Below, in pieces: positions 45,871 through 62,064 of a DNA stretch of 64,000 bases. The number at the start of each line of letters is the position of its first letter. The stretch's first letter is position 1. This DNA is from Minisyncoccota bacterium. GTDB taxonomy: Bacteria; Patescibacteriota; Minisyncoccia; Phycocordibacterales; UBA918. The notes beneath the pieces are model-generated. The model saw only the letters and a list, made by a program, of their open reading frames with translations, searched no databases and was not told the origin of the DNA. The translations under genes and the position numbers were made by a program. The DNA lies in contig JAWKSP010000001.1 in the NCBI GenBank assembly GCA_041389025.1, positions 128,002 through 192,001 of the forward strand, read 5' to 3'.

Positions 45871-47214
45871 CTACCGACCACCAACCGAATACCAATCCAA
45901 ATTCCTAGTGATATACATTACTATCGCCAATACTCCAAACAACAGTACCGAACCAAACAATAATGAATACTGATCCAATTGCAGAAGAATGTACAAGTAA
46001 CCATAGAGAGCGGTAAGCAAAGCTAATATAGACAACGCACGCTTCTTTAACTTAAGTACACTAAAACAGTAGCCAGTGATAAGTAACGTTGTCGCCAAAG
46101 CCGCTGTCACATAAGCCGCCACAAACCCAATAATTTCAGCAAACGAAAGCAAGAGTAGATAGAAGAGAGCGATCGCCAACCCTACCAGCAAGTACTGCAC
46201 TGGATGGATACGTAGCCCAGCCAATATCTCATACATAAAGAAAGTTAAGAACGTCAAACTGATAAAAAGAATTGAGTACTTGGTTGAACGATCAACCATA
46301 GTATAAAAATCAACTTCTTGATAAAGACCAACCCCAAATGTTTTAGACAAAAGAACATCAGGATTTATTGTTGCCGAATTACCAATCCACGATTGTGGTA
46401 AATTCTTTCCGTAAGAAGTGATTTTCCAAGTAGCTGAAAAACCATTTTCATTAATACTTCTCTCCTCCGGTAAAAATTCACCAATGAAACTAGGCGTATT
46501 CCAATCAGAATTTATGGTCACATCAGTGTTTTCTCCGAGTGGCAAAAAAGATATTTCTCTACTTCCTTTCAGCGGGAAATCAAAGGAAAAAGGATAACTA
46601 GTCTGACCTGGATCAATCTTCACCTCCGCATGCACACCACTATTATTAATAATTGAAAAGTTCGAAGCCGGTAGTAGCTGGTATTTATTTTCATTTAGGA
46701 CAAGGTCAAACATTGACGATATTCCTCTCGGATCAGAAACATTAATAGAGACAACTGCCTTATCCCAAAGTATTCTAGAATCTGCACCCACCTCTTTATT
46801 GATATTTGATAAATCAAAATTACCAGCCCCGCTAACGGTCGTGGTGTAGACCGGAGTATCATACACTCCTCTAGTTAAAAGTTTGGCGGCAACCTGACTG
46901 TCATAAGAAAGATTTTGTGGCAACAAAGTCAAAATAACTGTACTCACACCCCTTTCTCCAGTAGGTGTTATGCTCGTCTTTTCAACCGGAATAGTCAGCA
47001 CCGGACCAGCAATAGTCTGTGGCCGACTCCACTGTTCTGAGATTTGCGCCGAAACTTCCCTTTGTCTATCTTCCCTATCTTGAATCACTCCCCAGACAAA
47101 CTGAGTAGCGATCCAAGCCACCCCCATCAAAATAGCTAAGGTGAGTAATTTTTTAGTTAATCCATTATCACCCCTACGGTCATTTGTATTATTTACATTT
47201 TCGTTCATATTCAT
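45871..47214 (-). CDS. creD: CreD-family inner-membrane protein
   Basis: 447 aa; C-terminal HPVQYLLVGLAIALFYLLLLSFAE... block typical of CreD. Confidence 0.7.
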   Translation of the reverse strand: MNMNENVNNTNDRRGDNGLTKKLLTLAILMGVAWIATQFVWGVIQDREDRQREVSAQISEQWSRPQTIAGPVLTIPVEKTSITPTGERGVSTVILTLLPQNLSYDSQVAAKLLTRGVYDTPVYTTTVSGAGNFDLSNINKEVGADSRILWDKAVVSINVSDPRGISSMFDLVLNENKYQLLPASNFSIINNSGVHAEVKIDPGQTSYPFSFDFPLKGSREISFLPLGENTDVTINSDWNTPSFIGEFLPEERSINENGFSATWKITSYGKNLPQSWIGNSATINPDVLLSKTFGVGLYQEVDFYTMVDRSTKYSILFISLTFLTFFMYEILAGLRIHPVQYLLVGLAIALFYLLLLSFAEIIGFVAAYVTAALATTLLITGYCFSVLKLKKRALSILALLTALYGYLYILLQLDQYSLLFGSVLLFGVLAIVMYITRNLDWYSVGGR

Positions 47215-47289
47215 AGTCGTTCATTATTTAAGGTTTTTATACCTTTCTATTACTAAACTATACCCAAATTAGTTACTGACTAAATTTGT

Positions 47290-47625
47290 GATTATTTTTT
47301 TGATTGATTGTATCGTACTTATTATCTATCCTCGTACCACCATAAGGTTGGTAGTTTAGTAACTGATTTAAGTATCCGGTTTGATCGGTAACTTTGGTAG
47401 TAGAGTTTAAGTGATCTTGGTGGTTGTAGTATGTCTTGGGTGCTGGTGTATCTGCTTCTATGGTAGCTACTAGAGTATGGTTGGTGTAGATGTGTTTGGT
47501 AATGTTCCCATTCTTTAGTTCGTAGTTGGAGAATGGGTAGAGGGTGGTGTTGGTACCGGTGGTTTTGGAGACTCTTTGACCGGTGTGGTCGTAGGTGTAG
47601 GTGGTGGTGTTAGATACCTCGATTT
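47290..47625 (-). repeat. Truncated Rhs core-repeat remnant (no toxin tip), 4th copy of the 3' core homology
   Basis: About 95% identical to 54980-55270, 49460-49750, 51670-51950. Confidence 0.75.
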
Positions 47626-48011
47626 TGTTTTATTGGTCTATGTACATGTACACCACCTCCTACATAAGGATCATAATACTTTTCACACTCAAAGCATTTC
47701 CATCCACCTCTACTATTCCAACGTTGAAGATGTATATGTTTTTTTGAACCATCAAGACATTTTTGACAAAACGGCACATTATCTCCCTTCTTCCAATACA
47801 ACCCGTTCTTTAAGACAAAATCATGTTTAGTAGCAAGTTCCAACTTCAGAGCCTGATTTTCTTCTTTTAGAGCAATATTCTCATCTTTAATTGAAACAAT
47901 AAACTCACGCAAGCTTACTATCTTTTCTTGCAGATCAAGAGTTGCTGATTTTTTAACCAGCTCGGTGATACTTTCCAATATTGACTTTGCTTCTGAAAAA
48001 TTCAAATTCAT
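47610..48011 (-). CDS. Coiled-coil + zinc-ribbon hypothetical protein
   Basis: CQKC...CFEC pairs. Confidence 0.35.
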   Translation of the reverse strand: MNLNFSEAKSILESITELVKKSATLDLQEKIVSLREFIVSIKDENIALKEENQALKLELATKHDFVLKNGLYWKKGDNVPFCQKCLDGSKKHIHLQRWNSRGGWKCFECEKYYDPYVGGGVHVHRPIKQNRGI

Positions 48012-48055
48012 GTTTTTATATTTTACTATCTACATATATTTACCTCAACTTAACA

Positions 48056-48352
48056 CTACCACTTTAACCTTTCTTTCAACTCCAAAACCCTATCTGAAAG
48101 TAACAAAAAAATATCATTTTTAAATTCAGTATTACAACCAAAGGATTCAATAAAAATACCAGTGAGTTTTTCTGTGAAAATTACTTTTTCATTATCCTCC
48201 TTTAGCAAAGAGACTATTTTGATTACCTCATCATAATACTCATCACCCGGTGCCCCGCCTCCGATTAAGTTGACTGGATCTAATTCATTGACAATCTCGT
48301 GAATGTTTTTAAATACAATTTTATATAAATTCATACAACACAATTGAATCAA
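48056..48352 (-). CDS. Hypothetical small protein, candidate immunity protein for orphan CT at 48653..49396
   Basis: Position only. Confidence 0.35.
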   Translation of the reverse strand: MIQLCCMNLYKIVFKNIHEIVNELDPVNLIGGGAPGDEYYDEVIKIVSLLKEDNEKVIFTEKLTGIFIESFGCNTEFKNDIFLLLSDRVLELKERLKW

Positions 48353-48711
48353 TCGCTTTCAAACTTTGCAAACTCATGCATTTTAATCTTTGTTAAAAAC
48401 TCAACAAGGTTGTCGATGTCCGATTTTGAATCTTTTGAAGAGATTTCATCCTTCAATCGTTTAAGTTCTTCAACAACAAAGGTAATTTGAATTTCATTGA
48501 AATATGTATCCTGATTAGGGTCTACACATCTCAAGAGTGGATATTTTGATAAATCACGTGCATCATTCCACATTTCTTCAATCAGGAAATCATACCTATT
48601 ACCTACTTCTAATCTGTTTTGGTTTTCATCTATTTTTACTAATTTCATACGTTTATTTTTCTTTATTATTGTAACGAGGCTTGCCCGGATGCGCTGTAAC
48701 CAAATCACCAT
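48349..48711 (-). CDS. Hypothetical small protein, candidate immunity protein
   Basis: Immediately downstream of orphan CT, overlapping stop/start. Confidence 0.4.
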   Translation of the reverse strand: MVIWLQRIRASLVTIIKKNKRMKLVKIDENQNRLEVGNRYDFLIEEMWNDARDLSKYPLLRCVDPNQDTYFNEIQITFVVEELKRLKDEISSKDSKSDIDNLVEFLTKIKMHEFAKFESD

Positions 48712-49805
48712 TTTTTCTTGTAACCACTGTTACAACATTAGTGCCTTTACCAGATACCGCATCATATCCTATAGAACGATCCAACTCTACAGATCTAACT
48801 ATATTTCCATTTTTCTGTAAGACACCCTTTTGTCCATTAACGCTTTTTATTAGACTTGTAATTTCATCGGCGTTATTAAAATAACTATCTTTACCAAGAC
48901 TAAACTCACTTCCACCTATAGTATGTCTATTTAATACATGATTTTTCCTACTCTGAGAAATACTTACATTCGAAGCAGTTCTTAATGAACCAGTAGTAAC
49001 ATTCTTCACAACCTTCCCGCCACTCATCGACATACCTACCACAAAAGCTTTCTCTCCCACAGAAGCATTTGGATCTGCTAAGGTAGCTACACTGTCTCCC
49101 ACACTGCTACTTAGTAAAGCGCTATTTGTTATCGCAATACTGGCCGCTATTATTTCAGGTGCATAAATAACCAATGGTGCGGCAGCAAACCAAAAGAACT
49201 CCCCACCCTCATCAACATACTTAATCGGATTATTCGCCGTATAACTATAAGTGTTTTGTGACTGTGGACTCTTTAGATAATAACCTAATTTATTGTTGGT
49301 TTTATCTTGGACTGTTTTCCAATCTCCTAGAGCTAACGACACCGGATCCTGAGAAGTGAAGCGACCAGTATCCCCTGACTGGTAGCGTGCACCCATATAG
49401 GAAAGACTAGTCTCCTCATCATAATCATGCCCTGTATACCTCTTAGTTTGATTGATTGTATCGTACTTATTATCTATCCTCGTACCACCATAAGGTTGGT
49501 AGTTTAGTAACTGATTTAAGTATCCGGTTTGATCGGTAACTTTGGTAGTAGAGTTTAAGTGATCTTGGTGGTTGTAGTATGTCTTGGGGGCTGGTGTATC
49601 TGCTTCTATGGTAGCGACTAGAGTATGGTTGGTGTAGATGTGTTTGGTAATGTTTCCATTCTTTAGTTCGTAGTTGGAGAATGGGTAGAGGGTGGTGTTG
49701 GTACCGGTGGTTTTGGAGACTCTTTGACCGGTGTGGTCGTAGGTGTATGAAGTGGTTATTCCTGCTTTTGTGGACTCAGTTAGTTCGTTGCGGTGGTTCC
49801 AGGTG
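48653..49805 (-). pseudogene. Orphan Rhs C-terminal cassette: ~480-bp core-repeat fragment (49325-49805) + distinct toxin tip ORF 48653..49396 (begins MGARYQSGDTGRFTSQDPVSLALG)
   Basis: Core fragment nearly identical to 54855-55325 of the main rhs gene; tip contains ...NHVLNRHTIGG... putative nuclease-like motif. Confidence 0.7.
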
Positions 49806-49809
49806 TTCC

Positions 49810-50433
49810 TTATTTTTTATCTAACACGCTCTCACATTCACCACCAACACCTATATAATTTAACTCATTATTATTTTCATTGTCAGAAATAAACCAATAT
49901 CTTATAAAACCAACAAAAAAACTTACAGACAATAACAAAATACTAACTATTAGATGAGGAATTCCAATAAAAATAATAAAATAATAATTAGTAATAAATG
50001 TTATAAAGAAAATAACGATCAAAATATCAGTTATTTTGTGAAAAAATACTGATTTATAATAATTTTCTTTGAGTATTCTATTTACTTCCATTTTATCTAA
50101 CGAAATAGTTGTATTTTTTGAAATAAAATTTATACGCTTTGTGGACAAAGTATAAGTAACTATCGCACCAAGCAAAAAAGGAAACACCCAAATCAAAAAA
50201 TATTTTACAGCTTCATCTTTAACAATAGGCATCAGAGTAAATAGTCCTGCAATAGTAATTAACACACCTTGTCTAAGAGTAAAATCAGATAGATATCTTT
50301 CAATACGAATATTTTCCTCAGCATAAGATACAGAGTCATTATCATCAATCAATTCACCTAATGCGTTTAAACTTAATACACCAACTTCATGTTGAAGCTT
50401 ATTTATCTTAATCATTAATTCTTCCTTGTTCAT
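49810..50433 (-). CDS. Hypothetical multi-TM protein (candidate immunity for CT at 50888..51427)
   Basis: 207 aa, 4 TM. Confidence 0.35.
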   Translation of the reverse strand: MNKEELMIKINKLQHEVGVLSLNALGELIDDNDSVSYAEENIRIERYLSDFTLRQGVLITIAGLFTLMPIVKDEAVKYFLIWVFPFLLGAIVTYTLSTKRINFISKNTTISLDKMEVNRILKENYYKSVFFHKITDILIVIFFITFITNYYFIIFIGIPHLIVSILLLSVSFFVGFIRYWFISDNENNNELNYIGVGGECESVLDKK

Positions 50434-50483
50434 ACACCCAGGTTATACGTTTACATTATAATCTACAAAAATTATAGTTTATA

Positions 50484-50882
50484 TTATTTACCATAAACTA
50501 AAGTGTTGAATTTAGACCAAACACTATCTTGAGAACCATTTTCTATATGCTTCTGACACCATACGTAAGGGAATATCGTCTTTCCATTAGTCAATGTTAC
50601 AGGAAAAGTATCTTTGCCAAATTCTTGATGATCTCTAGACATGTCTATAAAAAAACCTTTTTTTTCAATAACTCTTGAGATATACATAGCCATTTCGAGA
50701 GCAATACCATTTAACCCTTCATTGTTGCCAGTTTGCATAAAATCATCATGGACAAGAGATAATATTTCATCAACATGTTTTATAGACTCTACTGAATAAT
50801 CAAGCTTATAGTCAAAATCTTTACCAATTTCAACAGCTAATTCCACTAACTTCTCTCTCATTTTTTGTAATTCTTTTTCCAT
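50484..50882 (-). CDS. Hypothetical protein (candidate immunity)
   Basis: 132 aa directly downstream of orphan CT. Confidence 0.4.
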   Translation of the reverse strand: MEKELQKMREKLVELAVEIGKDFDYKLDYSVESIKHVDEILSLVHDDFMQTGNNEGLNGIALEMAMYISRVIEKKGFFIDMSRDHQEFGKDTFPVTLTNGKTIFPYVWCQKHIENGSQDSVWSKFNTLVYGK

Positions 50883-50887
50883 AATTA

Positions 50888-51955
50888 TTACTGGTTTAAT
50901 TCCTTTCTTGTTACTTTTGCACCTGTGTTATCTAGAGATTGTTGTAGTGGCTTTGATAATTTTGTAGTAGGTCTGGTAATTAATTCCATTGTGTAGCCGT
51001 TTTGTTTTGAGTATTCAGTAAAAGCACGTAGCTGAGCTGTATTTGATTGATACTTTACATTTTTTACTTCTTGCAACGTTTTTGTTTGATGATTCAAACC
51101 ATCAGGTATTCGTTGCTTACCATTTCCTTTAATCAAATCTGGTATCTTCTCTGTATTTTTTTGTATACCAGACACAACTTCACCTATAGACCCTTTTCTC
51201 CTTACGTCAGCCAACTTATCGGCAACATTTCCAACAACCTTCCCTCCCGCCTTCACTTCTCCCGCAGGACTAGCAAACAAAGCAACAGCGATAGCTTTGT
51301 CTCCCAAAGAAGCATTCGGGTCAGAAACAGTTTGTCCGGTAGTATATGCATCATAAGCTGTTAACCCAGCCATCACTGCAGCTATAGCTAACGGGATAAT
51401 GTTTCCGTTAGGATCTGAAATAATCATTGGATTATTTCTAGCGTAACTATAAGTATTAAACTGCTGAGGATCTCTAAGGAATACATCTAACGGTCGACTG
51501 TATGTATCTTCCCAACTTTGTGCACCTAGGTCAAGGTTAGCTTGGTCTTGACTGGTAAATCTGGCAGTCTGTCCATTTTCATAACGACTACCTAGATAGT
51601 TTAATCCAGTCTCTTCATCTTTGGTTTCACCTAGATACTGACGGTGTTGGTTTATGCTTCCATACTGTTCATCAATTCTAGTGTCTCCAAACGGTTGATA
51701 GCTTAGTAACTGATTAAGGTAACCATCTTTGTCGGTGACAGCATTGGTAGAGTTTAAGTGATCTTGGTGGTTGTAGTATGTCTTGGGGGCTGGTGTATCT
51801 GCTTCTATGGTAGCGACTAGAGTATGGTTGGTGTAGATGTGTTTGGTAATGTTTCCATTCTTTAGTTCATAGTTGGAGAATGGGTAGAGGGTGGTGTTGG
51901 TACCGGTGGTTTTGGAGACTCTTTGACCGGTGTGGTCATAGGTGTATTTTACTTA
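50888..51955 (-). pseudogene. Orphan Rhs C-terminal cassette: core fragment (51660-51955) + distinct toxin tip ORF 50888..51427
   Basis: Core homology to main rhs; tip unrelated to the other two tips. Confidence 0.65.
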
Positions 51956-51957
51956 TA

Positions 51958-52398
51958 TTACTTAATATCGGTAACTGGCTTCACTTCAACATTTTTACCA
52001 GTAAACTCAGTGTTTACACGACGAGTAAGACGACTATCGTCAGTGAACACAACAATTTGCTCTGTCGGATCAAACAGTCTCTCAATCTTTTGGATAGTAA
52101 ACATATCCAATACAGTATGAATAGTGGCAAGAATAGAAATATCACCAAAGCCAGTCATGTTAAAAAATGATCTACCTCCATGGATATTAAGCATACGTTT
52201 ATAGTGATTTAAGTATAACACTTCGTCAAATTCATCAATAACAACAATCTCTGATATTCCTACCGGAATACTTTGACTATGAACAAGCTGTGCCAACTCA
52301 ACCTCTTCGATTACATCAGGCACTAAATAATAATCCTCAGTCAGAGAGATTTGTCTATCAAAAATATAAGAAACGCCATTTGTGTCAATTAAATTCAT
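51958..52398 (-). CDS. PIN-domain protein (VapC-like nuclease)
   Basis: MNLIDTNGVSYIF (Asp5), ...IVVFTDDSRL (Asp cluster); 4-nt ATGA overlap with upstream gene. Confidence 0.6.
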   Translation of the reverse strand: MNLIDTNGVSYIFDRQISLTEDYYLVPDVIEEVELAQLVHSQSIPVGISEIVVIDEFDEVLYLNHYKRMLNIHGGRSFFNMTGFGDISILATIHTVLDMFTIQKIERLFDPTEQIVVFTDDSRLTRRVNTEFTGKNVEVKPVTDIK

Positions 52399-53592
52399 AT
52401 ACCAAGTTCTTTTCGATACTTACGAAACCCTTTCTTATTTACAGCACCGAAAATCAAGTACTGTGCTTGTGTACTTGATAGAGTCTTTGAACGGATACCA
52501 GTATTTATTGTCTTAAATGATTTACTACCACAAAACTTTCTCACTGACGTAGAAATATTTGGTGACCTAGCATGATTTTTTGTCTTCTTAGATATAAATG
52601 GAGGAGGTTTTAAAGTTTCAAATTCTTTCTTAGTCAGAATTCCTCTCATACGAAGCGTAATAATGAGTGCCAATGGAGATACTTTAAACTTCAAAGCAAG
52701 TTGGTCTCTCTTTGTAGTAGTAACTTCTCGTCCACGTAGTTTTTCAGTCTCATTCACAGGCATAAGTAGTTCAGCTGTAATGGCGTGGATTCGTGCTGAC
52801 ATTTTTTGTGATTTCATAAGCTTTGCTTTGAAATTTTTCTCAAGTACATAGTCGTATTGATCAAGCCCAATTACCACCAAAAGATAAACAAGTGTGTAAA
52901 TCTGACGACTCTCAACTTCGTCAGGATTAACTTCACTCGGAAGAAAAACAAACGGAATTTTGTCATCTTTGATAGCAAAACCGCTAGTGTTTTTATACAC
53001 ATCATTACCAACCACTTGGTGATTAGGTAGAATCTTGTTTGTCAGTACACCACGAGAGACATTGACTGATTTTTTGATTAACTTTTTCAATCAGATATTC
53101 GAGAGCCGTTCCCTTTCCTGTATAATTCCAGAATTTATCTCGGTCTATTTCAAAGTGTGTCAGGATTTTATTGACTGCATTTTGCAGTCTTAGTCCCTTA
53201 AGTGAACCACAAAAAGGATTTAGTGGTAACGTACTAACTGAAGTGATGTAGTTCTGCTGACGAATAAGTCGATCAATGATGCGTTTAGAAGTAACATCGC
53301 CAGCACCTTTACGCTTCGCAACAAGCTTTCTTGACACCTTATGCTGACGCTGTGCCTCAATATGATTAATGGTGGTATTAAGATTAGCTGGTGTCAGGAG
53401 AAACATCTGCCACGGAATAAGAATTTTCTCGCTTTCCTCCCTAAGTTCGTACAGTTCTATGCTGCCAGTAGCGAACGCCTTTTGAAATACTGGTCTACTT
53501 ACTAGCTCCTCTTCTGGATACAGCTTAAGAACACGTTCGACAACGCCATCATAAATCTCTGTTGAACTTGTTCCATTAATAACAACCCACAT
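52395..53592 (-). CDS. Hypothetical ~410-aa protein apparently split by a frameshift at an A6 run (ORFs 53023..53592 and 52395..53090)
   Basis: The two ORFs overlap by 68 nt in different frames across CAAAAAATCAG; C-terminal part has a weak ImmA/IrrE-like helix (SPLALIITLRMRGIL). Confidence 0.4.
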
Positions 53593-53751
53593 ATGAGGTC
53601 TTCGTTTGATTTAAGTACTTGGCGTTTATTCGTCATAGCACACAATAAAACTAGCATAAGTAAACAAATTTTTACAGCCTGACTCAGACAATCACGGGGT
53701 TAGATCAAGAATTGTCTATTATCAGACCATAGAAAAGGAATTAATTGAAAG

Positions 53752-54219
53752 TTATCTGGTAGAATTCACTAACTTTGTAATTTTTAATTCAACTGAACCT
53801 GCCCCCATCATATTATCTTGAGGATACATCTTTAACTCAGAATTTTCATTTAAGTCATACTTAACTTCCTTAACAAACTTCATTGTTACGTCATCATAGT
53901 AAGATAAAAAAATCAAACCAGCCTCATCGTCTATTCTCATCAATGGCGGCATAGTCCATTTTTCTCTATCCCAGTTTTCAATCTTTTTAACCACTGACCA
54001 AGAATTCTCAATTAAACCTAAATCACCAAATTTTCCAACTAGAATTGCTTTTTCTGGTTCTAATTTACTTAAATCAGCGTCTGGTTGAAAAAAGTAACCA
54101 AAGATTTTACCTTTTCTATCCATTCTAGCTATAACCCCATATCCATTTCTTCCTGAATCATCACGAAGTGGAACACTAACTATGTCTCCTTCCGAATAAT
54201 TAATTTTTGCATCTTTCAT
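53752..54219 (-). CDS. Hypothetical protein, candidate cognate immunity protein for the Rhs C-terminal toxin
   Basis: 155 aa, starts 19 nt after rhs stop. Confidence 0.45.
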   Translation of the reverse strand: MKDAKINYSEGDIVSVPLRDDSGRNGYGVIARMDRKGKIFGYFFQPDADLSKLEPEKAILVGKFGDLGLIENSWSVVKKIENWDREKWTMPPLMRIDDEAGLIFLSYYDDVTMKFVKEVKYDLNENSELKMYPQDNMMGAGSVELKITKLVNSTR

Positions 54220-54237
54220 ATAGCTAATATATCAGAT

Positions 54238-57200
54238 TTAATTAGCCGCGTCTTCGTATTCTTTCTTACGAGGATTCTGGTTACTAATCGGTTGCTGCTT
54301 GTTCAAGCCTCCATTTTCATATTTAGCCTCTGGATGTTGATCATAGATCTTTTGTTCTTGACCTCGTTGCGTTGCGTAATCATCTGTTCTTCTGTTAACC
54401 TCAAAATCATAATCTCTTGTTTCAGGATTTCGCGCATGTTCGTATTCACGTCTCTCAAGATTATTGGTTCTACCAGTTCTTACAACCTTTCCTGTTTCAC
54501 TGTCGATGAGTTTATATGTTCCACCCACAGCTTCAACAGCCTCATCACTATACTGAGCAACCCTCCTTAATGATCCAACTCCTACAACTCCAGGCACAAG
54601 TGCTCCACCAGCATCAAGAGCCAGGTTAGTTGCTTCACCCCTTACATCACCACCAGTCAGAATTGCTTCACCTAGTTTATAAGCACTGTAAGCCGTGAAT
54701 CCAACATCAACAACGATATCTAACCATTCTCCATTTTTATCTTGATATTTGAGTGGGTTGTTAGCTGTGTAACTATAAGTATTTTGGGCTTGTGGGTTTT
54801 TTAGATAGATATCTACTGTTGAATCCATTTTATCTCTCATCAGCCCAGGACTACCCAAAGCTAACGACACCGGATCCTGAGAAGTGAAGCGACCAGTATC
54901 CCCTGACTGGTAGCGTGCACCCATATAGGAAAGACTAGTCTCCTCATCATAATCATGCCCTGTATACCTCTTAGTTTGATTGATTGTATCGTACTTATTA
55001 TCTATCCTCGTACCACCATAAGGTTGGTAGTTTAGTAACTGATTTAAGTATCCGGTTTGATCGGTAACTTTGGTAGTAGAGTTTAAGTGATCTTGGTGGT
55101 TGTAGTATGTCTTGGGGGCTGGTGTATCTGCTTCTATGGTAGCGACTAGAGTATGGTTGGTGTAGATGTGTTTGGTAATGTTTCCATTCTTTAGTTCATA
55201 GTTGGAGAATGGGTAGAGGGTGGTGTTGGTACCGGTGGTTTTGGAGACTCTTTGACCGGTGTGGTCATAGGTGTATGAAGTGGTTATTCCTGCTTTTGTG
55301 GACTCAGTTAGTTCGTTGCGGTAGTTCCAGGTATTAGTAGTACTACCGTCTGTTAGGAGGTTACCGTTTTGGTCATAGGTGTGGGTGGTACCTCCGATGG
55401 CGGTGGCAGCGTGTGGGTTGGCGTAGTTGGTACCAGTGTCTCCTTGGTAGGAGTATGTTCCTTGATCTGATTTAGTAAGGATGTTTCCTATACTGTTGTA
55501 TGAGTAGGTTTCACTGTATGGGGTGGTGCTGGCGCCCGTGGTTGAGGCGGAAGTCAGGCGATATAGATCATCGTAGGTGTAGGTAATAGTACCAGCAGAG
55601 TCTGTCTCACTATTGTCTATTATTTGAGTAATGTTACCGACAGTGTCGTAGGTGTAGGTGAGATTTTGGACATTCTCAACAAAGATTGGAAGAGTTGGAG
55701 TGGTGGTACTGGTGGTAGTACCGGCCGCTAATGAGAAAGTAGCCGTCTCAGTACTCCACTCTCCTTCTGTGTCACTGTCATCCCAGAATTTTATACGCCA
55801 GTGGTAGGTGGTGCTGGAAGCTAGTGGTAAACCACCATATGTGATGTCGGCAGTTCTGTTTCCTGCTGTTACTTGACTGACTAGCGCAGTCTTTGTACTA
55901 TCCCAAATATTGTTGGTGAAAGCAGTTGAAGTTGATACTTGGAGTTGGTAATGAGTTGCCGTATCTCCTGTATCTGGGTCATTGTATATAGCTGTGAATT
56001 CTGGTGTGTTGTCGGTGATATCTGTCGGATTGGTTTGTCCTTCTGTTTCAAGAAGTGTTGGTGCAGTTGGGGTGGCGTTGGTTGGTGGTGGAGGTATATT
56101 TCCTGTTTCATAAGTTGCATATATTGAATGTAAGGCGTGACCAGCATCAGTACACGATGGACTGTTTGGTGCTAAAAAACTATTAGTATGGTCAAATATT
56201 TCATGTACACCATAAGCAAAATCTAGCTTAATATCAGGATAACCCTTAGACACTATGGTAAGAGCATAGTTTGTATTTGGATTAATTGACACAGGTATTT
56301 CAAAAACACTTTCCGTCCAAGCAAAATTTGTTGGAATATTTGCAGACACACCAACTCCATCAGACACAATTCCACAGGTATTTGTATCTATTACAACTCC
56401 TTTGAATTTATCATTGCTGTAATACTTTCTTGTAAAAAAATTTATACCAGTGACAGTAGTAGCGTCTGACGGACTAGTGTATACATTGCCAATCATCCAA
56501 TTATGTCCAACATAATCCGTATAGGCACCAACAGAAGTATTGCCAAAAGTCGGATCCACAACCACTGGATAAGTTGCTGTTTCTAAGAAGTTTTGTGGGA
56601 CAGTAACAGAGAGCATTCCCTCTTTATAATCTAATTCTCCCCATACCTCTTCACCATTGGCGTCTTTAATTTTTGGTCTATATATATGATAGACTTTTCC
56701 GGTAGCATAATTTATCTCTCCTTTTACATGATTCTTCTTAGTCTTGTGGTATACCGCATAACTACCAACTATATTTTCTGCTCGCTCCAGGGTTACTCTA
56801 CCACCCTCATCAATACACTTCGTTTCCGTACAAATCTCTCCTTCTCCAAACAACCCTTCAAGTGAAACTGGTTGATAAAAGAAATCAAGATCCTCATATC
56901 CATCAATTTCAAACTCAAATACATTGGTGTCCGGTTTTTCGTCCAAAATCACTTCGATTTCAAACCCTCCATCTTCCATTTGCTCAGTGGCAGGCAACGG
57001 ATAAGCATGTATTCTTTCTTTCTTGTCTTTGTCTTTCCATTCAACTACATCAGTTCCTAAAATATTTTCCCCTTGCCCTTTTACTTTGTTGTATCTAACA
57101 CCAAGATCAATTTCTCCTTTCCATTTGTGAAGACGTACCTCGGGATGGGTTTTCTTTAGAATAACTTTATCTTTGTTCTTATTATTTTGTATTAAAAATA

Positions 57201-60200
57201 AGCTATCATCACCTTCAATGTACTTACTTTTCTTATCTGAGTTATTAATTTTATCTATTACATCTAAAATTATGGATGTTTTTGTCTCTGGTAAGAAAGT
57301 CCTATTTGTATTAGGTTCATGTACAGATACAGTATAATTCTCGTCAGTGGAGGTAGATATTATTTCGATACTTTCTGACACACCAATAGTTGTAATCAAC
57401 TCTTCAACGTACATATCTTCATCAGTAACCACTGACCCAGTTCCAGCCGAAGTGGTAGTAGTTGCAGTATCAGATAGTGATGTAGTAATGTCGGAAGAAG
57501 TAGCGATTGGCTCATCCACTGTTTCTACCACCATCTCTTCTTCGGTTGACGGAGCTATAGAGTCAGTAGTCAAAGCATCTAGCTCAGCCTCTATGGTAGC
57601 CAACTCTTCACCCCCATTACCGGTACCGTAAGTACTGGTAGCAGTAGTGAGGATATTTTTCAATCGGTACAGTTCGGTCGCGTCATAAGTACGAGTAGTT
57701 ATAGAGCCGTTGCCGTATTCGATATTTTCCATCTGACCATGCGGCCCATAATCAATATCACTGACGATATTTGCAAAAGTTCCCCCACTCTCTCTTTGTT
57801 CCACTTTGTCTACCTGACCACCTTTATTAAAGATGTACTTAACTTCTGAGTTATCTGGATAAGTAATGAGTGTTTGGTTGCCTTGGCGATCATACTGGTA
57901 GCTAGTGGTATAGGTATTACTATTTATTGTTTTAGCTTCTGAAGCCAAAAGATTATTTGGAGTATAAGTGTAGTTAGTGGTAGCCGAAGAATTAACGGCG
58001 GTACAAAGCTGTCCCACGCCACCCGTACAAGTGTCGTAGGTATAAGTAATTTCTGTACCAGCTTGTCCGGTGTAGTTCTCGGTCAACTGACGATTGAGAG
58101 CGTCGTAGGTGTAGTTGGTAGTCTGACTCTCTGGATCAGTCTTGCTGGTTAGGTTGCCGGCATTATCGTAAGCAAAAGTCCAAGTACCAAAAGTACTATC
58201 ACTCGGTGCATGCAAGTCCTCCAAGCTAGTACGCCGACCAAGCGAGTCATAACTTATATTTCGCACATTACCTTCCGCATCAGTTATCTTGGTCAAGTTA
58301 CCAAGATTATTCCAAGTGTAGCCTGTGGTATATGAATTGGTTCCTTCGTTTTCAGTCACGGCTACCAGTCGACCAAAAGCATCATATTGGAATTTCTTAT
58401 CGTTGCCAGCGGTATCGGTAACAATTTCTTTCCATTGGTCATAAACTGTTTCAGTTGTACCGACCACAGTCTCCACTGAAGACACCCTGCCAACCGGATC
58501 ATAGTTGAAAATACTTAAAAGATTATTGTTGGTAGTAGGTACACTTCTTGCTGAACCGGTATCAAAATACCGTAAAGACTCTTTGGCCAAAAGACCATTA
58601 TCACCATAAACGTAATCTTTCACTACATACTGATTACTTTCTTCCGCTTCTTGTCTTTCTTGTATCTTTCGACCAAAACCATCCAAGAATGTGTATGAAT
58701 TTTTAACCAAACTGCTGTTTAGATAATTTTTCTTTTGCACGCTGACACTGCCAACCGTATCGGTGTAGACATACTCAGTTTGTACTACCGGAGCGCCGGT
58801 CTGTGGGTCAGGTAATGTAACAGTAAGTGGTCGGCCAAATCCATCGTAAGTAGTGGCAAAAATATTTCCATTAGCGTCGGTAGTAGTCGCTACTTGCCCG
58901 GAAGAATAATCATACTCATACTGTGTAGTCTGGTTGAGAGAGTTGGTGACACTGGTCGGATATAAGTTGTATGCATCGTAAGTGTAGTTAGTGGTGTTAC
59001 CGTTTGGATCAGTCTCGGCTGTTACTAGCCCTAGACTGTTGTATGTCCATTGTTTGTTTATATAGTTGCTACCACCTAACCAATTTTCTTCTTTGGTCTT
59101 ATTACCTAGAGTAACCGTACCAAGTGGTTGGTTATCGTAGTAGAAGAGAGACTCTTGGACTTTGGTGCCGGAGTTGTCGGTCAAGGTTTGTTTGGATGGT
59201 AGTACCATACCGCTAGCATTAGTAGCATACTCAATAGTCGTTACTTGTTTGTCGGTACCAGTATCTGAGAAAGTGCCATCAGAATTACCATTCACCTCTC
59301 CCCACTCGGTTTTTGTGAGAAGTGAGCCGTTGGTGTTGTTGTATGTATAGCTGTTGGCCGAAGCTTTTTTGTCGCTATCACCATCGTAATCAAGCTTAAG
59401 GTCACTCTCTAATTTTAAAAATATATTTCCACCACTAAGTGAAGTGGTAGAAAAATTGTTATGAGAGAGTGCATAAATATTATCTGAAAAATCGTTTACT
59501 TCACTACGATACACTTGGCCGATCAAAAACTCGCCATCTACCCTCTCTTCAGATGTGGTTGAGACCCCGTTTCCTTGATGGTAATAATTTACTTCTTTGT
59601 TTAAACTGGTGATCTTAGAGACTTCACCAAAACCAGAAAACTTGCGTTCGTATATATTATCTGCATCGTAATAAAAATCAGCTTTTTTATAATCATAAAC
59701 CTCAATTTGTACATCACCAAAATTTGAACTCATCTCCTTACTGGTTACCACCACGGGGTTAAATCTTGGTTTTCCAATTTCTTGATAATTCACCCGTCCA
59801 TCTTCCAAATAACCACTATATGAAACTTCAATATTTCCAGATTTTGAAGAAGAAATAAGAGAAAGTTGATCGGGAACAATTTGATCATTTAATTTTACCG
59901 AACCACCACTTGTATGCACTTCATATAAATCATTGAATTCCAAATCCAAGATATCAACAATAGTATCTCCGTCTATATCTACAAAAGCTTTTCCATAGTT
60001 ATGACCACTATAACTATGAGTTAAGAAAAAAGGTAAAGAATAACTTTCTTTTTTCCAACCATTTCCGGTATTAATGTATGTTTCAGCAAACTGCTGACCA
60101 CTATAATACAGTGATTTAACTATATCGGGTAATCTATCACCATTAATATCAACTAAATTATAACCTGTATTAGGAGAACCAGTACTTTTTATGTAAAAAT

Positions 60201-62064
60201 CCACAGGTAAAATCCAATCGGAACTGGTAGCCCAACCATTTCCGGTATTAAGATACACGATTCTTTCGTCTATTTCTGGATTAAATTCTTTTCTATCATC
60301 CTTATAACCTCTAACAGCATCAATTAACCCATCACCGTTAACATCTATCAATCTAGTACCCATATCTGAAAAACTTTTCCATCCGTATCTACTAGATTTA
60401 TTCCCTAAAGGAACCGGAAAATATAATTCTGAATCTTCCCAACCCTGACCGTTATTTAATGCTACTGATGATCTTATATTTTCAGGAACAGAACCATTCT
60501 CAAGCGAAATAAACTCAGAGGTTATGATGTCTGGTAACCCATCACCGTTCACATCTGCGAATGTTCTTGCTGAGTTTGCAAACTTAGAATCAGGATAATA
60601 CCACCAAGTAAAAGACAATAATCCAGTCCAATTTGTATCTTTTACAAAACCACTGCCATTGTTTATATAGACACCGTATTGCTCCAAAGGATACCAAGAA
60701 GGGTATTCATAGTATGAAGAAGGTCCGTCGTAGGCTACTACTATGTCGTCTAACCCATCACCGTTCACATCTATCAATCTAGTGCCCATATCGATATATT
60801 GTGTAGGGTTACTTGTGTTGTCTTTTTCTCTAATCGAGAAAGGCACCTTGATATCATCCCAACTCCAATCAACATCATAATCCCATTGTCCGCCACCTTT
60901 ATTTATATGTACTCTTCTAACCAAATGATTCTCCCATGGATATTGATCACGATCAAAGAAGTGGTAGTATCTAACAACATCAATTAATCCGTCTCCATTT
61001 AAATCGCCAAACCTTACTCCGGTATCTTTAGAATTTAAAGGTTCCGGAAAGTTTTCATATTCCGTACTATTCGACCAATCAGGCAATTTAACACCACCAT
61101 ACTCAAAAATAGTTTCCGGTAAAATAACCTCACCTGATTCTCCGTAACCTTTCTCAGTTATACCTAACAACAAAATTCTACTCTCATTTATACCTTCACC
61201 AAATCGTAAATCATAGCTTCTTACTTTTTCATCATTAACGTAAACGCCTATACCTGAAACGTTGTATTTTCTTGTGACTTTAAAGTTTTTATCATATGAA
61301 GTAAATGGAGTTGTGCTTGTCGCCAATGAAAACTTGACCTCGAAAATATCACTATAAGAAATACTTTCTGGATATATCGAGCCGTTACTTTTTACATATG
61401 TATAATTTGTAACATTTCCGTCTTTATCTTCCACTTTTTCTAGCATCCATTTAGCAACCTCGTTTTCGTTACCAGTATTACTTTGACGAGAATTGTCAGT
61501 TAGACCAAAGTAATATTTATTTCCACTTTTATCTCTAACCTCCCAAACATTATCCAGAAAAATATAGGATAAAAAATCTCCTCTCTCTATTCTAGACACA
61601 AATGTGGTTGAGTCGTTAGTAGGAAACAATTCCCCTGATAAGGACGAATAAAAAGTTGATGACGCAATATACAATTTATCAACACCTCTTTTGTTTATAG
61701 TTTCAATAAAAGGTATAGAGGACTTCCAACCATAACCAAACACATCAACGTCACTTGCTTGCTGATTATTGTATGTAAGTTTTAACATTGGTGTATATTG
61801 ACCTCTCCCTTCAGGAAAAGAAAAGTCATATTTATATTCAAAAGCACCGGTAGATAAATTTATCGTTCCACTATTTAGAAAACTTATATCTCTTGACGGT
61901 ATATTGGTAACAAAACCATCTTCATTTGTGTACACGTCAGCTGATGCAAAATTTTCTAAAGGTATAGCAAAAAATAAAAACACAAGCATAAGGCTTGTGT
62001 TTTTATAAAGAAAATTAAAAAACTTACTTTCGGTTTTTGGTTTGGTTAAACAGAAAAAATTCAT
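54238..62064 (-). CDS. Rhs/YD-repeat polymorphic toxin (2608 aa): signal peptide, FG-GAP/VCBS-like Ca-binding repeats, YD repeats, P/T-rich linker + FN3-like domain, Rhs core ending ...GRFTSQDPVSLALG, C-terminal GIY-YIG-like nuclease tip
   Basis: Repeated xDxNGDGLxDxV motifs; dozens of YD repeats (YTYDxxGNL...); core ...YMGARYQSGDTGRFTSQDPV; tip GTYKLIDSETGKVVRTGRTNNLERREYEH fits GIY-x10-YIG...R...E/H pattern. Confidence 0.85.
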   Translation of the reverse strand: MNFFCLTKPKTESKFFNFLYKNTSLMLVFLFFAIPLENFASADVYTNEDGFVTNIPSRDISFLNSGTINLSTGAFEYKYDFSFPEGRGQYTPMLKLTYNNQQASDVDVFGYGWKSSIPFIETINKRGVDKLYIASSTFYSSLSGELFPTNDSTTFVSRIERGDFLSYIFLDNVWEVRDKSGNKYYFGLTDNSRQSNTGNENEVAKWMLEKVEDKDGNVTNYTYVKSNGSIYPESISYSDIFEVKFSLATSTTPFTSYDKNFKVTRKYNVSGIGVYVNDEKVRSYDLRFGEGINESRILLLGITEKGYGESGEVILPETIFEYGGVKLPDWSNSTEYENFPEPLNSKDTGVRFGDLNGDGLIDVVRYYHFFDRDQYPWENHLVRRVHINKGGGQWDYDVDWSWDDIKVPFSIREKDNTSNPTQYIDMGTRLIDVNGDGLDDIVVAYDGPSSYYEYPSWYPLEQYGVYINNGSGFVKDTNWTGLLSFTWWYYPDSKFANSARTFADVNGDGLPDIITSEFISLENGSVPENIRSSVALNNGQGWEDSELYFPVPLGNKSSRYGWKSFSDMGTRLIDVNGDGLIDAVRGYKDDRKEFNPEIDERIVYLNTGNGWATSSDWILPVDFYIKSTGSPNTGYNLVDINGDRLPDIVKSLYYSGQQFAETYINTGNGWKKESYSLPFFLTHSYSGHNYGKAFVDIDGDTIVDILDLEFNDLYEVHTSGGSVKLNDQIVPDQLSLISSSKSGNIEVSYSGYLEDGRVNYQEIGKPRFNPVVVTSKEMSSNFGDVQIEVYDYKKADFYYDADNIYERKFSGFGEVSKITSLNKEVNYYHQGNGVSTTSEERVDGEFLIGQVYRSEVNDFSDNIYALSHNNFSTTSLSGGNIFLKLESDLKLDYDGDSDKKASANSYTYNNTNGSLLTKTEWGEVNGNSDGTFSDTGTDKQVTTIEYATNASGMVLPSKQTLTDNSGTKVQESLFYYDNQPLGTVTLGNKTKEENWLGGSNYINKQWTYNSLGLVTAETDPNGNTTNYTYDAYNLYPTSVTNSLNQTTQYEYDYSSGQVATTTDANGNIFATTYDGFGRPLTVTLPDPQTGAPVVQTEYVYTDTVGSVSVQKKNYLNSSLVKNSYTFLDGFGRKIQERQEAEESNQYVVKDYVYGDNGLLAKESLRYFDTGSARSVPTTNNNLLSIFNYDPVGRVSSVETVVGTTETVYDQWKEIVTDTAGNDKKFQYDAFGRLVAVTENEGTNSYTTGYTWNNLGNLTKITDAEGNVRNISYDSLGRRTSLEDLHAPSDSTFGTWTFAYDNAGNLTSKTDPESQTTNYTYDALNRQLTENYTGQAGTEITYTYDTCTGGVGQLCTAVNSSATTNYTYTPNNLLASEAKTINSNTYTTSYQYDRQGNQTLITYPDNSEVKYIFNKGGQVDKVEQRESGGTFANIVSDIDYGPHGQMENIEYGNGSITTRTYDATELYRLKNILTTATSTYGTGNGGEELATIEAELDALTTDSIAPSTEEEMVVETVDEPIATSSDITTSLSDTATTTTSAGTGSVVTDEDMYVEELITTIGVSESIEIISTSTDENYTVSVHEPNTNRTFLPETKTSIILDVIDKINNSDKKSKYIEGDDSLFLIQNNKNKDKVILKKTHPEVRLHKWKGEIDLGVRYNKVKGQGENILGTDVVEWKDKDKKERIHAYPLPATEQMEDGGFEIEVILDEKPDTNVFEFEIDGYEDLDFFYQPVSLEGLFGEGEICTETKCIDEGGRVTLERAENIVGSYAVYHKTKKNHVKGEINYATGKVYHIYRPKIKDANGEEVWGELDYKEGMLSVTVPQNFLETATYPVVVDPTFGNTSVGAYTDYVGHNWMIGNVYTSPSDATTVTGINFFTRKYYSNDKFKGVVIDTNTCGIVSDGVGVSANIPTNFAWTESVFEIPVSINPNTNYALTIVSKGYPDIKLDFAYGVHEIFDHTNSFLAPNSPSCTDAGHALHSIYATYETGNIPPPPTNATPTAPTLLETEGQTNPTDITDNTPEFTAIYNDPDTGDTATHYQLQVSTSTAFTNNIWDSTKTALVSQVTAGNRTADITYGGLPLASSTTYHWRIKFWDDSDTEGEWSTETATFSLAAGTTTSTTTPTLPIFVENVQNLTYTYDTVGNITQIIDNSETDSAGTITYTYDDLYRLTSASTTGASTTPYSETYSYNSIGNILTKSDQGTYSYQGDTGTNYANPHAATAIGGTTHTYDQNGNLLTDGSTTNTWNYRNELTESTKAGITTSYTYDHTGQRVSKTTGTNTTLYPFSNYELKNGNITKHIYTNHTLVATIEADTPAPKTYYNHQDHLNSTTKVTDQTGYLNQLLNYQPYGGTRIDNKYDTINQTKRYTGHDYDEETSLSYMGARYQSGDTGRFTSQDPVSLALGSPGLMRDKMDSTVDIYLKNPQAQNTYSYTANNPLKYQDKNGEWLDIVVDVGFTAYSAYKLGEAILTGGDVRGEATNLALDAGGALVPGVVGVGSLRRVAQYSDEAVEAVGGTYKLIDSETGKVVRTGRTNNLERREYEHARNPETRDYDFEVNRRTDDYATQRGQEQKIYDQHPEAKYENGGLNKQQPISNQNPRKKEYEDAAN

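Follow-up and report, generated by a model that had tools for sequence, protein, structure and literature searches.

ImmA/IrrE-type proteins form a hub of toxin-antitoxin (TA) and defence systems, among them RosmerTA, the cyclic-oligonucleotide-based anti-phage signalling systems (CBASS) regulated by CapP/CapH, and PD-Lambda-2, and proteolysis is usually assumed to be their mode of action. Operons in which a helix-turn-helix (HTH)-DUF955/COG2856 gene is joined to a PIN-like gene (COG2405, DUF4411, PIN_14, PIN_20, PIN_26) were predicted to be three-component TA systems; the PIN-associated DUF955 domain was stated to keep the HEXXH motif, and PIN toxins were linked to restriction-modification (R-M) systems (Matelska et al. 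2017, PMC5499597). RosmerTA was described as a defence TA system with a Zn-peptidase antitoxin (Millman et al. 2022, preprint 10.1101/2022.05.11.491447). In the NetFlax network the ImmA/Rosmer domain D25 is an antitoxin hub with varied toxins, PIN-like ones included (Ernits et al. 2023, PMC10440598). Here we describe a locus of two genes, gene A and gene B, in a Minisyncoccota bacterium (GenBank assembly GCA_041389025.1, contig JAWKSP010000001.1). The stretch analysed, called the window below, comprises 64,000 nucleotides (nt) of this contig, from position 128,002 to 192,001. The locus is probably a horizontally mobile two-gene module of TA type, belonging to the class in which an XRE-HTH/ImmA-IrrE (COG2856) partner is combined with a PIN-like nuclease and which includes RosmerTA. 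Its large protein comes from a lineage in which the zinc-binding and catalytic residues have been replaced throughout.

Results

Gene A is a single gene split by one extra base

In the window gene A appears as two open reading frames, ORF1 and ORF2 (Table 1), which overlap by 68 nt and lie one frame apart. The frame changes where the minus strand reads CAAAAAATC (plus-strand T6, 53070-53075). When one A is removed from this A6 run, a single product of 398 amino acids (aa) is obtained, and the A5 version restores CAA AAA TCA GTC AAT, which reads QKSVN. The junction of the fusion (...EYLIEKVNQK/SVNVSRGVL...) is free of gaps in alignments of 18 and of 97 sequences; the intact homologue P0001, for example, reads ...EYLIRQVDRKSINVSRGVL... 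at this place, with no gap against the fusion. The fusion was searched against 5.8 billion proteins, which gave 249 matches, 120 of them listed. Among the matches listed, most are 396-400 aa long, with 99-100% query coverage and 48-80% identity. The nearest homologue has an E value of 6e-206, so that the homology of gene A is far beyond chance. More than 100 intact homologues of 396-400 aa align with the 398-aa fusion from end to end, and in the hidden Markov model of the family ORF1 takes profile positions 1-174 and ORF2 positions 169-399. These alignments bear out the preliminary description of the locus, in which the two ORFs had been read as one protein frameshifted at an A6 run. The length of about 410 aa given there was too high, and what had been called a three-ORF module consists of two genes, one of them split.

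Gene A is uninterrupted in all 20 homologous loci that were fetched, and it is split in the window copy only. At 13 homologous loci the junction reads K-(N/S/Y/F)-(I/V)-(N/T), with differing codons and with no conserved A run. No second stop codon or indel is present in gene A, and the family-invariant residues of both genes are all intact (97 gene A and 61 gene B homologues). A Candidatus Paceibacterota metagenome-assembled genome (MAG) has the 146-aa protein of the window, at 100% identity, as R3B60_00985 and the 231-aa fragment as R3B60_00990 (P0066), a hypothetical protein. Because R3B60_00990 is annotated as a separate protein, the public assembly carries the same frameshift and provides no independent evidence on the reads. 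The insertion that turned A5 into A6 is either a very recent inactivating mutation or an error of the assembly consensus.

Two further accounts of the split were considered and rejected. Programmed frameshifting or phase variation, taken as the main reading, is contradicted by the absence of the A run at 13 of 13 loci compared and by the single ORF seen in every homologue. Assembly indels on a wide scale are contradicted by the other overlapping ORF pairs, which are separate complete genes.

Gene A is a predicted ImmA/IrrE homologue of the RmrA type

When 1.84 billion cluster representatives were searched exhaustively with HMMER, 420 clusters matched at E ≤ 1e-3, 158 of them at ≤ 1e-10 and 53 at ≤ 1e-30; as the clusters were made at 50% identity, the lineage comprises at least 420 of them. 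Members at about 20% identity still cover the whole architecture of about 400 aa. Profile A7, which represents a distant branch of the family, reaches the PF06114 proteins P0432-P0443 with E values of 1.4e-24 to 4e-11; one of these proteins also carries PF01381 (HTH_3) and one is named XRE family transcriptional regulator. The joint alignment A8 of the gene A family with its canonical relatives spans all three domains at full length. The canonical relatives match RmrA models with E 2e-22, and capP and PD-Lambda-2_B as well; P0432 and P0434, the two whose contigs were looked up, each have a DUF4411 gene directly downstream. Many members of the gene A family are labelled 'Zn-dependent peptidase ImmA (M78 family)' by JGI, and Pfam Peptidase_M78 weakly matches 31 of the 97 family members (best E 3.3e-4). 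Gene A itself is matched by PHROG 2439 ('transcriptional regulator') with E 9e-6 and weakly by the PADLOC capP model.

To judge from these profiles, gene A is homologous to Peptidase_M78/ImmA-IrrE (PF06114, COG2856) over its whole length. The preliminary description had found no family that could be named for the large protein and had seen an ImmA/IrrE-like feature in a weak C-terminal helix alone. The resemblance holds, its restriction to that helix does not, and the family can be given as XRE-HTH plus Peptidase_M78 of the RmrA type. No clear housekeeping homologue of the large protein was found in the searches.

The N-terminal domain aligns to the XRE-type HTH region of the canonical relatives and is degenerate; a Pfam scan recognised no HTH in the window protein. 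Its conserved motifs are IPWQMF and KRKGxGxVTSKRIIDRLIRQQN. The C-terminal helical domain is common to the canonical XRE-M78 relatives of about 385 aa. The AlphaFold2 (AF2) model of gene A has a predicted local distance difference test (pLDDT) score of 89.6 and a predicted template modelling (pTM) score of 0.88. Its top fold match in the PDB is CapP 7t5t (probability 0.95, 209 columns, E 0.09, TMq 0.26 for the three-domain model). When PDB sequences were searched with the profiles of families A and B, no meaningful match was obtained.

The catalytic site is lost throughout the gene A lineage

In A8 the canonical sequence RQIFTLFHELAH stands opposite RQIYTLVYLLVV of the window protein, the canonical pattern being RQIFTL(F/V)HEL(A/V)H. 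It can be seen that HELAH is replaced by YLLVV, with Tyr236 in place of His, Leu237 in place of Glu and Val240 in place of the second His; the downstream Glu that serves as third ligand is replaced by Ser263. An invariant His was found nowhere in gene A across 97 sequences. HExxH, counted at any position in the protein, is present in 1 of 119 close members and in 1 of 97 distant members, and in 12 of 12 canonical relatives. Since the zinc ligands and the catalytic Glu are replaced lineage-wide, gene A cannot act by proteolysis. On this comparison it is best classed as an M78 homologue without the defining catalytic feature, and not as an active member. Our search of the literature, which does not prove absence, found no described protease-dead ImmA-type antitoxin with a PIN toxin.

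Gene B is predicted to be a PIN-like nuclease

Four acidic residues of gene B, D5 (in LIDTN), E32 (PDVxEE), D86 (GFGDISILA) and D121 (FTxD), are invariant in its 61 homologues, and T119 is conserved in at least 90% of them. The acidic residues match the canonical PIN positions, namely the end of beta1, the helix following beta2, the first part of the helix following beta3, and a place past beta4, T-x-D included, as expected if the small protein is of PIN type as first described. In the AF2 model (pLDDT 90.4) strands and helices alternate, and the best PDB match is Rrp44, a PIN-bearing exosome subunit (probability 0.97, E 0.03, template modelling (TM) score 0.53). PIN families gave no match at E ≤ 1 for the window gene B or for any of the 61 homologues, and the PF14367 profile matched none of the 61. 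PADLOC and PHROGs returned nothing of significance for gene B, a Foldseek search of the model against the viral BFVD library was uninformative, and hhalign of the gene B family with a single distant partner gave no significant match.

The connection to PIN proteins was made through a sister family. Alignment A10 holds 28 downstream partners from the distant gene A branch, and its members have Pfam matches to PIN_4 (8 of 28, best E 1.5e-5), PIN (4), and DUF4411 (E 0.01), PIN_5 and PIN_6 (1 each); the single PIN_4 bit score shown, that of member 1, falls below the gathering score. The gene B family (alignment A4) was compared with A10 by hhalign, which gave a probability of 91.9% and an E value of 7e-7 over 116 columns, and the same four acidic positions are invariant in A10. 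Because of this transitive link between the A4 and A10 profiles and of the conserved acidic residues, gene B is filed as PIN-like. It would thus belong to the PIN-like superfamily; its assignment does not extend to DUF4411 (PF14367), to which its genomic position is analogous.

The loop GRSFFNMTGFGD (gene B residues 75-86; window 52141-52176) precedes the third acidic residue and is almost invariant in the 61 homologues. It is the sole low-confidence segment of the model (pLDDT < 50 at residues 77-80), and its equivalent in A10 is the shorter (N/G)KG(A/S)AD. This loop may be a substrate- or antitoxin-binding element.

The two genes are strictly paired in varied, mobile contexts

In the close family, all 19 loci whose sequence extends past gene A have a PIN-like gene immediately after it, and the two genes mostly overlap by 4 nt. 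The ATGA overlap of genes A and B, noticed already in the first reading, is translational coupling. Alignment A9, a narrower set, was used for the locus search in the distant HEXXH-less branch. Here all 30 loci with enough downstream sequence carry an ORF of 130-162 aa with the D/E/D/D signature, and most of these pairs have the 4-nt overlap too. The co-occurrence with PIN genes in other genomes, which had been named as a check on the module, is thus conserved in both branches, and the gene order (large gene upstream, PIN-like gene downstream) is fixed in 49 of 49 assessable loci. In the public contig of L022 the PIN-like gene that follows the distant homologue P0283 (3505-3948) includes a stretch of N, masked or unresolved bases, and no gene was called; its flanks show the PIN signature. 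A conserved overlapping bicistron found in many unrelated contexts is the generic mark of type II TA systems, and this is what was observed.

Species-representative genomes that host the module are mostly Patescibacteria (Parcubacteria/Paceibacterota, Kaiserbacteria, Saccharibacteria), with FCPU426, Methylophilus and a Flavobacteriaceae MAG in addition, and the taxonomic spread is patchy. Homologues of both genes are present in Methylophilus sp. DW102, a cultured betaproteobacterium (L005-L007, AP029023.1 2798671-2811090); this copy is on 35 contigs, 24 of which were read. In Methylophilus and in the Flavobacteriaceae and FCPU426 MAGs (L015, L016, L009) both genes have about 45-64% identity; in a family that is mainly patescibacterial, this occurrence indicates horizontal transfer of the module across phyla.

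A survey of 136 neighbouring proteins at 15 non-redundant loci gave 120 families, of which the 25 most frequent were listed. The commonest are ResIII (5), large serine recombinase domains (4), and HsdR, HsdM and HsdS (3 each); Type ISP and a Schlafen-like helicase are single cases. Within the close family the surroundings of the pair differ between loci, R-M genes and recombinases being frequent among them. At L002 (6001-7634) and L003 (4280-5913) the pair lies between called hsdS and hsdR genes on the same strand, within one type I R-M operon, and its ends overlap or nearly abut the R-M neighbours; L014 (7977-9634) has the same layout by ORF size only. This arrangement suggests that the pair is co-transcribed with the R-M system at these three loci. 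At L004 (4871-9156) the pair lies between Hypoth_Ymh (TIGR02391-like) and DUF6602 plus SMODS, beside RadC and TrwB-like conjugation genes, in a defence island carried by a probable integrative element. At L001 a serine recombinase adjoins the pair. RHS_repeat is not among the 25 most frequent of the 120 neighbour families at the 15 loci, so the location of the window module beside Rhs genes appears incidental. Nor did an Rhs gene occur among those called at L001-L007 and L021-L026; neighbour annotation did not extend to the 44 metagenome loci L027-L070.

The module lies within an Rhs array

The coordinates of the module and of the features around it are collected in Table 1.

Table 1. Features of the module and of its surroundings (window coordinates)
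Feature	Coordinates	Strand	Description and basis
ORF1	53592..53023	minus	189 aa; gene A residues 1-174, then 15 out-of-frame residues and a stop
ORF2	53090..52395	minus	231 aa from TTG; gene A residues 175-398, +1 frame
Gene A, reconstructed	52395..53592	minus	398 aa; putative protease-dead XRE/ImmA-IrrE-like (RmrA-like) antitoxin
A6 homopolymer with extra base	53070..53075	minus (T6 on plus)	Sequence and codon comparison, 13 homologous loci
Gene A N-terminal domain, aa 1 to ~125	53218..53592	minus	Alignment A8 with P0434, P0438 (PF01381 + PF06114)
Gene A central ImmA/IrrE (Peptidase_M78/COG2856)-like domain, aa ~135-330	52602..53190	minus	Predicted to be catalytically dead
YLLVV codons, aa 236-240	52872..52886	minus	HEXXH-equivalent position in alignment A8
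Gene A C-terminal helical domain, aa ~345-398	52398..52559	minus	AF2 helices 346-396; alignment A8
ATGA stop/start overlap of genes A and B	52395..52398	minus	Sequence; same 4-nt overlap at homologous loci
Gene B	51958..52398	minus	146 aa; PIN-like nuclease, putative toxin
Gene B acidic residues	D5 52384-52386; E32 52303-52305; D86 52141-52143; D121 52036-52038	minus	
Upstream intergenic region of gene A	53593..53751	minus	159 nt; promoter/operator presumed
Imm26-family immunity gene of main Rhs toxin	53752..54219	minus	Pfam Imm26 E 5.3e-7; outside module
Main Rhs protein	54238-62064	minus	2608 aa; RHS_repeat E 1.4e-33, SpvB, FG-GAP, Ig_Rha78A_N
First orphan Rhs C-terminal cassette	50888..51952	minus	Core-end fragment VKYTYDHTGQRVSK...; Tox-REase-7 tip, E 4e-24
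300-nt Rhs core-end repeat, four copies	47178-47477, 49326-49625, 51525-51824, 54854-55153		

As had been described, the module is situated between the Rhs immunity gene and the first orphan cassette, which starts 6 nt after the stop codon of gene B. The main Rhs protein is of TcB/TcC-like build and is found here in a small Patescibacteria genome. Pfam gave no family for the C-terminal tip that follows the core-end motif; inspected by eye, this tip shows a GIY-YIG-like pattern (GTYKLID...GRTNNLERREYEH), and the Imm26 gene follows it. The core-end repeat copy at 49326-49625, in the second orphan, is 99% identical to that of the main gene and the other two copies are 68-69% identical. This difference points to a recent event, either duplication or gene conversion, in which the main Rhs gene was involved together with the second orphan and not with the first. 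On the minus strand, 49810-50882 lies downstream of the Tox-REase-7 tip and encodes two proteins without a family match, one of 132 aa and the other, hydrophobic, of 207 aa; they are presumably the products of a cognate immunity gene and of a passenger. Directly past the last core-end repeat lies a gene for a full-length inner-membrane protein of the CreD family (45871-47214, minus; E 6e-141), whose start is overlapped by the repeat at 47178-47477 (69% identity). The Rhs array may end distally at this CreD gene.

Scans for sigma-70-like promoters, terminators and inverted repeats around the module gave results at chance level, and such scans may not suit Patescibacteria promoters. No Rfam family was found in 47000-56000 and no tRNA within 15 kb. 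At the module itself neither flanking repeats nor a compositional break were found, and the GC content is not distinctive. As repeats, a tRNA and a break in GC are all missing, insertion boundaries and att sites cannot be defined.

Discussion

The reading that we favour, a mobile TA-type module, rests on what the sequences show: the gene structure, the homology, the loss of the active site, the strict pairing and the mobile or defence-island contexts. Because of homology and operon plan, gene B is taken as the toxin and gene A as the antitoxin or regulator. Gene B would be a metal-dependent PIN-like nuclease that cleaves RNA and arrests growth, by analogy with VapC and other PIN toxins. With the catalytic site gone lineage-wide, the proteolytic switch of the canonical systems is inapplicable, and neutralisation by direct binding is the simplest alternative: gene A most likely keeps the nuclease inactive by binding to it, might also repress the operon through its remnant HTH, and would let the nuclease go when triggered, for instance by an infecting phage or because the module is lost. 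In the window the module seems to have been inserted between the main Rhs immunity gene and the first orphan cassette, and would be functionally outside the Rhs system.

Several points weigh against this reading. In Pfam and NCBIfam nothing significant was found for gene A or gene B, whether the three ORFs or the fusion served as query. The PADLOC RmrA model (PDLC03949) matched with E values of 1.5e-3 (ORF2) and 4.4e-3 (fusion), over 83 residues only. The Foldseek matches of both models have E > 0.01 and TM ≤ 0.53, and hhalign of A4 against two genuine DUF4411 proteins gave a probability below 1%. In NetFlax the gene order at the ImmA/Rosmer node is variable, and the assignment of toxin and antitoxin is uncertain in the nearby network (PMC10440598). 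As to function, the identity of the toxin, its neutralisation by binding, the RNA substrate and the defence role are what we infer. Finally, a truly frameshifted antitoxin gene A beside an intact gene B should be harmful; this combination points to an assembly error, to working fragments, or against a simple antitoxin model.

The frameshift may be an artefact of sequencing or assembly, the organism itself having an intact and functional A5 module; to this we give just less than half of our belief. It is compatible with the TA-type reading and bears on the state of the window copy alone. The lesion is a one-base change in the length of a homopolymer, which is a typical leftover error of long-read consensus. 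The absence of any further damage, the invariant residues kept in both genes and the intact state of the 20 other loci all speak for an error, and under a TA model a dead antitoxin beside an intact toxin would be counter-selected. Against it, the run is only 6 bases long, and widespread indel errors are not seen in the rest of the window, as far as its genes were checked: the 7.8-kb Rhs ORF is unbroken, and in three further cases of overlapping ORFs each member of the pair is a full-length gene of its own, covered completely by its Pfam match. The same combination of a frameshifted gene A with an intact gene B would be tolerable if gene B were not toxic at all. Gene A would then be a mere repressor of the XRE family and the PIN-like nuclease a non-toxic protein, possibly for housekeeping or for DNA or RNA processing, with no TA relation between the two. 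The canonical relatives are indeed annotated as XRE family transcriptional regulators, and PHROG 2439 bears a similar label. We nevertheless consider this unlikely, given that related ImmA-type proteins are experimentally confirmed antitoxins (PMC10440598), that the 1:1 pairing with a 4-nt overlap is strict across very divergent lineages, and that a patchy spread across phyla, with copies in R-M operons, in islands flanked by recombinases and in an Rhs array, is typical of selfish or defence elements and not of housekeeping genes.

The remaining alternatives assign other roles to the two proteins. It was proposed for canonical HTH-DUF955 operons with DUF4411, PIN_14 or PIN_20 that an M78 protease cuts an HTH domain or repressor on a stress signal, whereupon the PIN gene is transcribed, and ImmA and IrrE do cleave HTH repressors (PMC5499597). 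Gene A has the full architecture of the canonical proteins in A8. Such a switch needs HEXXH, however, and gene A has Tyr, Leu and Val there and Ser as third ligand; the absence of an invariant His and the family-wide loss of the site, together with an HTH region too degenerate for Pfam, make this three-component mechanism very improbable here. Makarova et al. in 2009 reportedly predicted COG2856 as the toxin in Xre-COG2856 pairs. If roles were reversed or shared in this way, the COG2856-like protein would be the toxic or effector component and the PIN-like protein an accessory or antitoxin, and the variable gene order at the ImmA/Rosmer node would fit (PMC10440598). This is hardly credible for the present lineage, where the effector protease site is absent from gene A, the PIN-like protein keeps a complete and strongly conserved acidic site of nuclease type, and the order of the large gene and the PIN-like gene is fixed in all 49 loci. 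As for a component of the Rhs system, either an extra immunity/toxin pair or a factor of cassette exchange, the module does have the Imm26 gene on one side and the first orphan cassette on the other, and it ends 6 nt before the orphan frame. In the neighbour data covered, Rhs linkage was seen at the window locus only, and Pfam and NCBIfam scans gave no PAAR, Rhs or immunity-family signal for gene A, so that we regard this as the most improbable account of all.

A variant of the TA-type reading deserves mention. The HEXXH-less ImmA/IrrE-like protein may be a non-catalytic sensor, whose dead cleft and degenerate HTH bind a phage ligand or protein and thereby free the PIN nuclease. We put this forward as a doubtful but not negligible possibility. 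If it is true, the lineage, of at least 420 clusters, would represent an abortive-infection system in its own right that is widespread in Patescibacteria and often located inside type I R-M operons, and the M78 scaffold of RosmerTA-like systems could work without proteolysis.

Taken together, the module is a divergent branch of the known class of XRE-ImmA/IrrE plus PIN-like (RosmerTA-like) systems, and not a new kind of system. The preliminary description had proposed a defence or TA module in a toxin island, of an unrecognised or novel kind; the first part is supported by the mobile contexts and the strict pairing, and the second gives way to the precedents (PMC5499597, PMC10440598). What is unusual, and had been missed there, is the lineage-wide loss of HEXXH in a partner strictly coupled to a PIN-like nuclease. 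With every catalytic residue replaced and the three-domain scaffold strongly conserved, the gene A lineage amounts to a natural separation-of-function mutant, which suggests that the module can persist on binding alone. For the Patescibacteria the lineage is a further candidate system of defence or addiction, and with Methylophilus one homologue is available in a host that can be cultivated for experiments. The window copy itself is more ordinary, a mobile TA-like cassette, possibly broken, in a recombination-prone array of Rhs orphans.

Comparison with known systems

The HTH-DUF955 plus DUF4411 operons are similar in that their first gene, for a protein of about 385-400 aa made up of HTH, M78 and C-terminal domains, is followed by an overlapping or abutting small PIN-like gene, and association with R-M systems is common to both. 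They keep the zinc site, whereas the window lineage lost it throughout. In addition, the HTH of the window protein is undetected by Pfam, and its partner has no direct PF14367 match and carries the lineage-specific GRSFFNMTGFGD loop. RosmerTA likewise has a large ImmA-type protein, often with an N-terminal HTH, which serves as antitoxin to swappable toxins and is associated with phage defence and with defence islands. Gene A of the window falls below a sensible RmrA threshold and lacks the peptidase motif, the domain being present and its zinc and catalytic residues absent. Moreover, the toxin here is a putative PIN-like nuclease, whereas the RmrT types tested so far are membrane-depolarising or unknown, and modules of the window's lineage are found mostly in Patescibacteria.

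With VapBC the module shares a toxin of predicted PIN fold with four acidic residues, its position downstream of the partner, the stop/start overlap, and mobility in multiple contexts. In contrast, VapB has about 70-90 aa, binds DNA and is of AbrB, ribbon-helix-helix, Phd or HTH type, whereas the partner here has 398 aa and an M78-like core, and the toxin candidate lies below the thresholds of the Pfam PIN families; the view that this is not a canonical pair of a small antitoxin with VapC was therefore correct. CapH/CapP of CBASS, ImmR/ImmA and DdrO/IrrE have a component of M78 fold, and CapP 7t5t is the best, though weak, structural match of gene A. In these switches an active metalloprotease cuts a separate HTH repressor on DNA damage, whereas gene A has no catalytic site, carries its HTH-like region as part of the same protein, and would control a gene for a predicted PIN-like nuclease.

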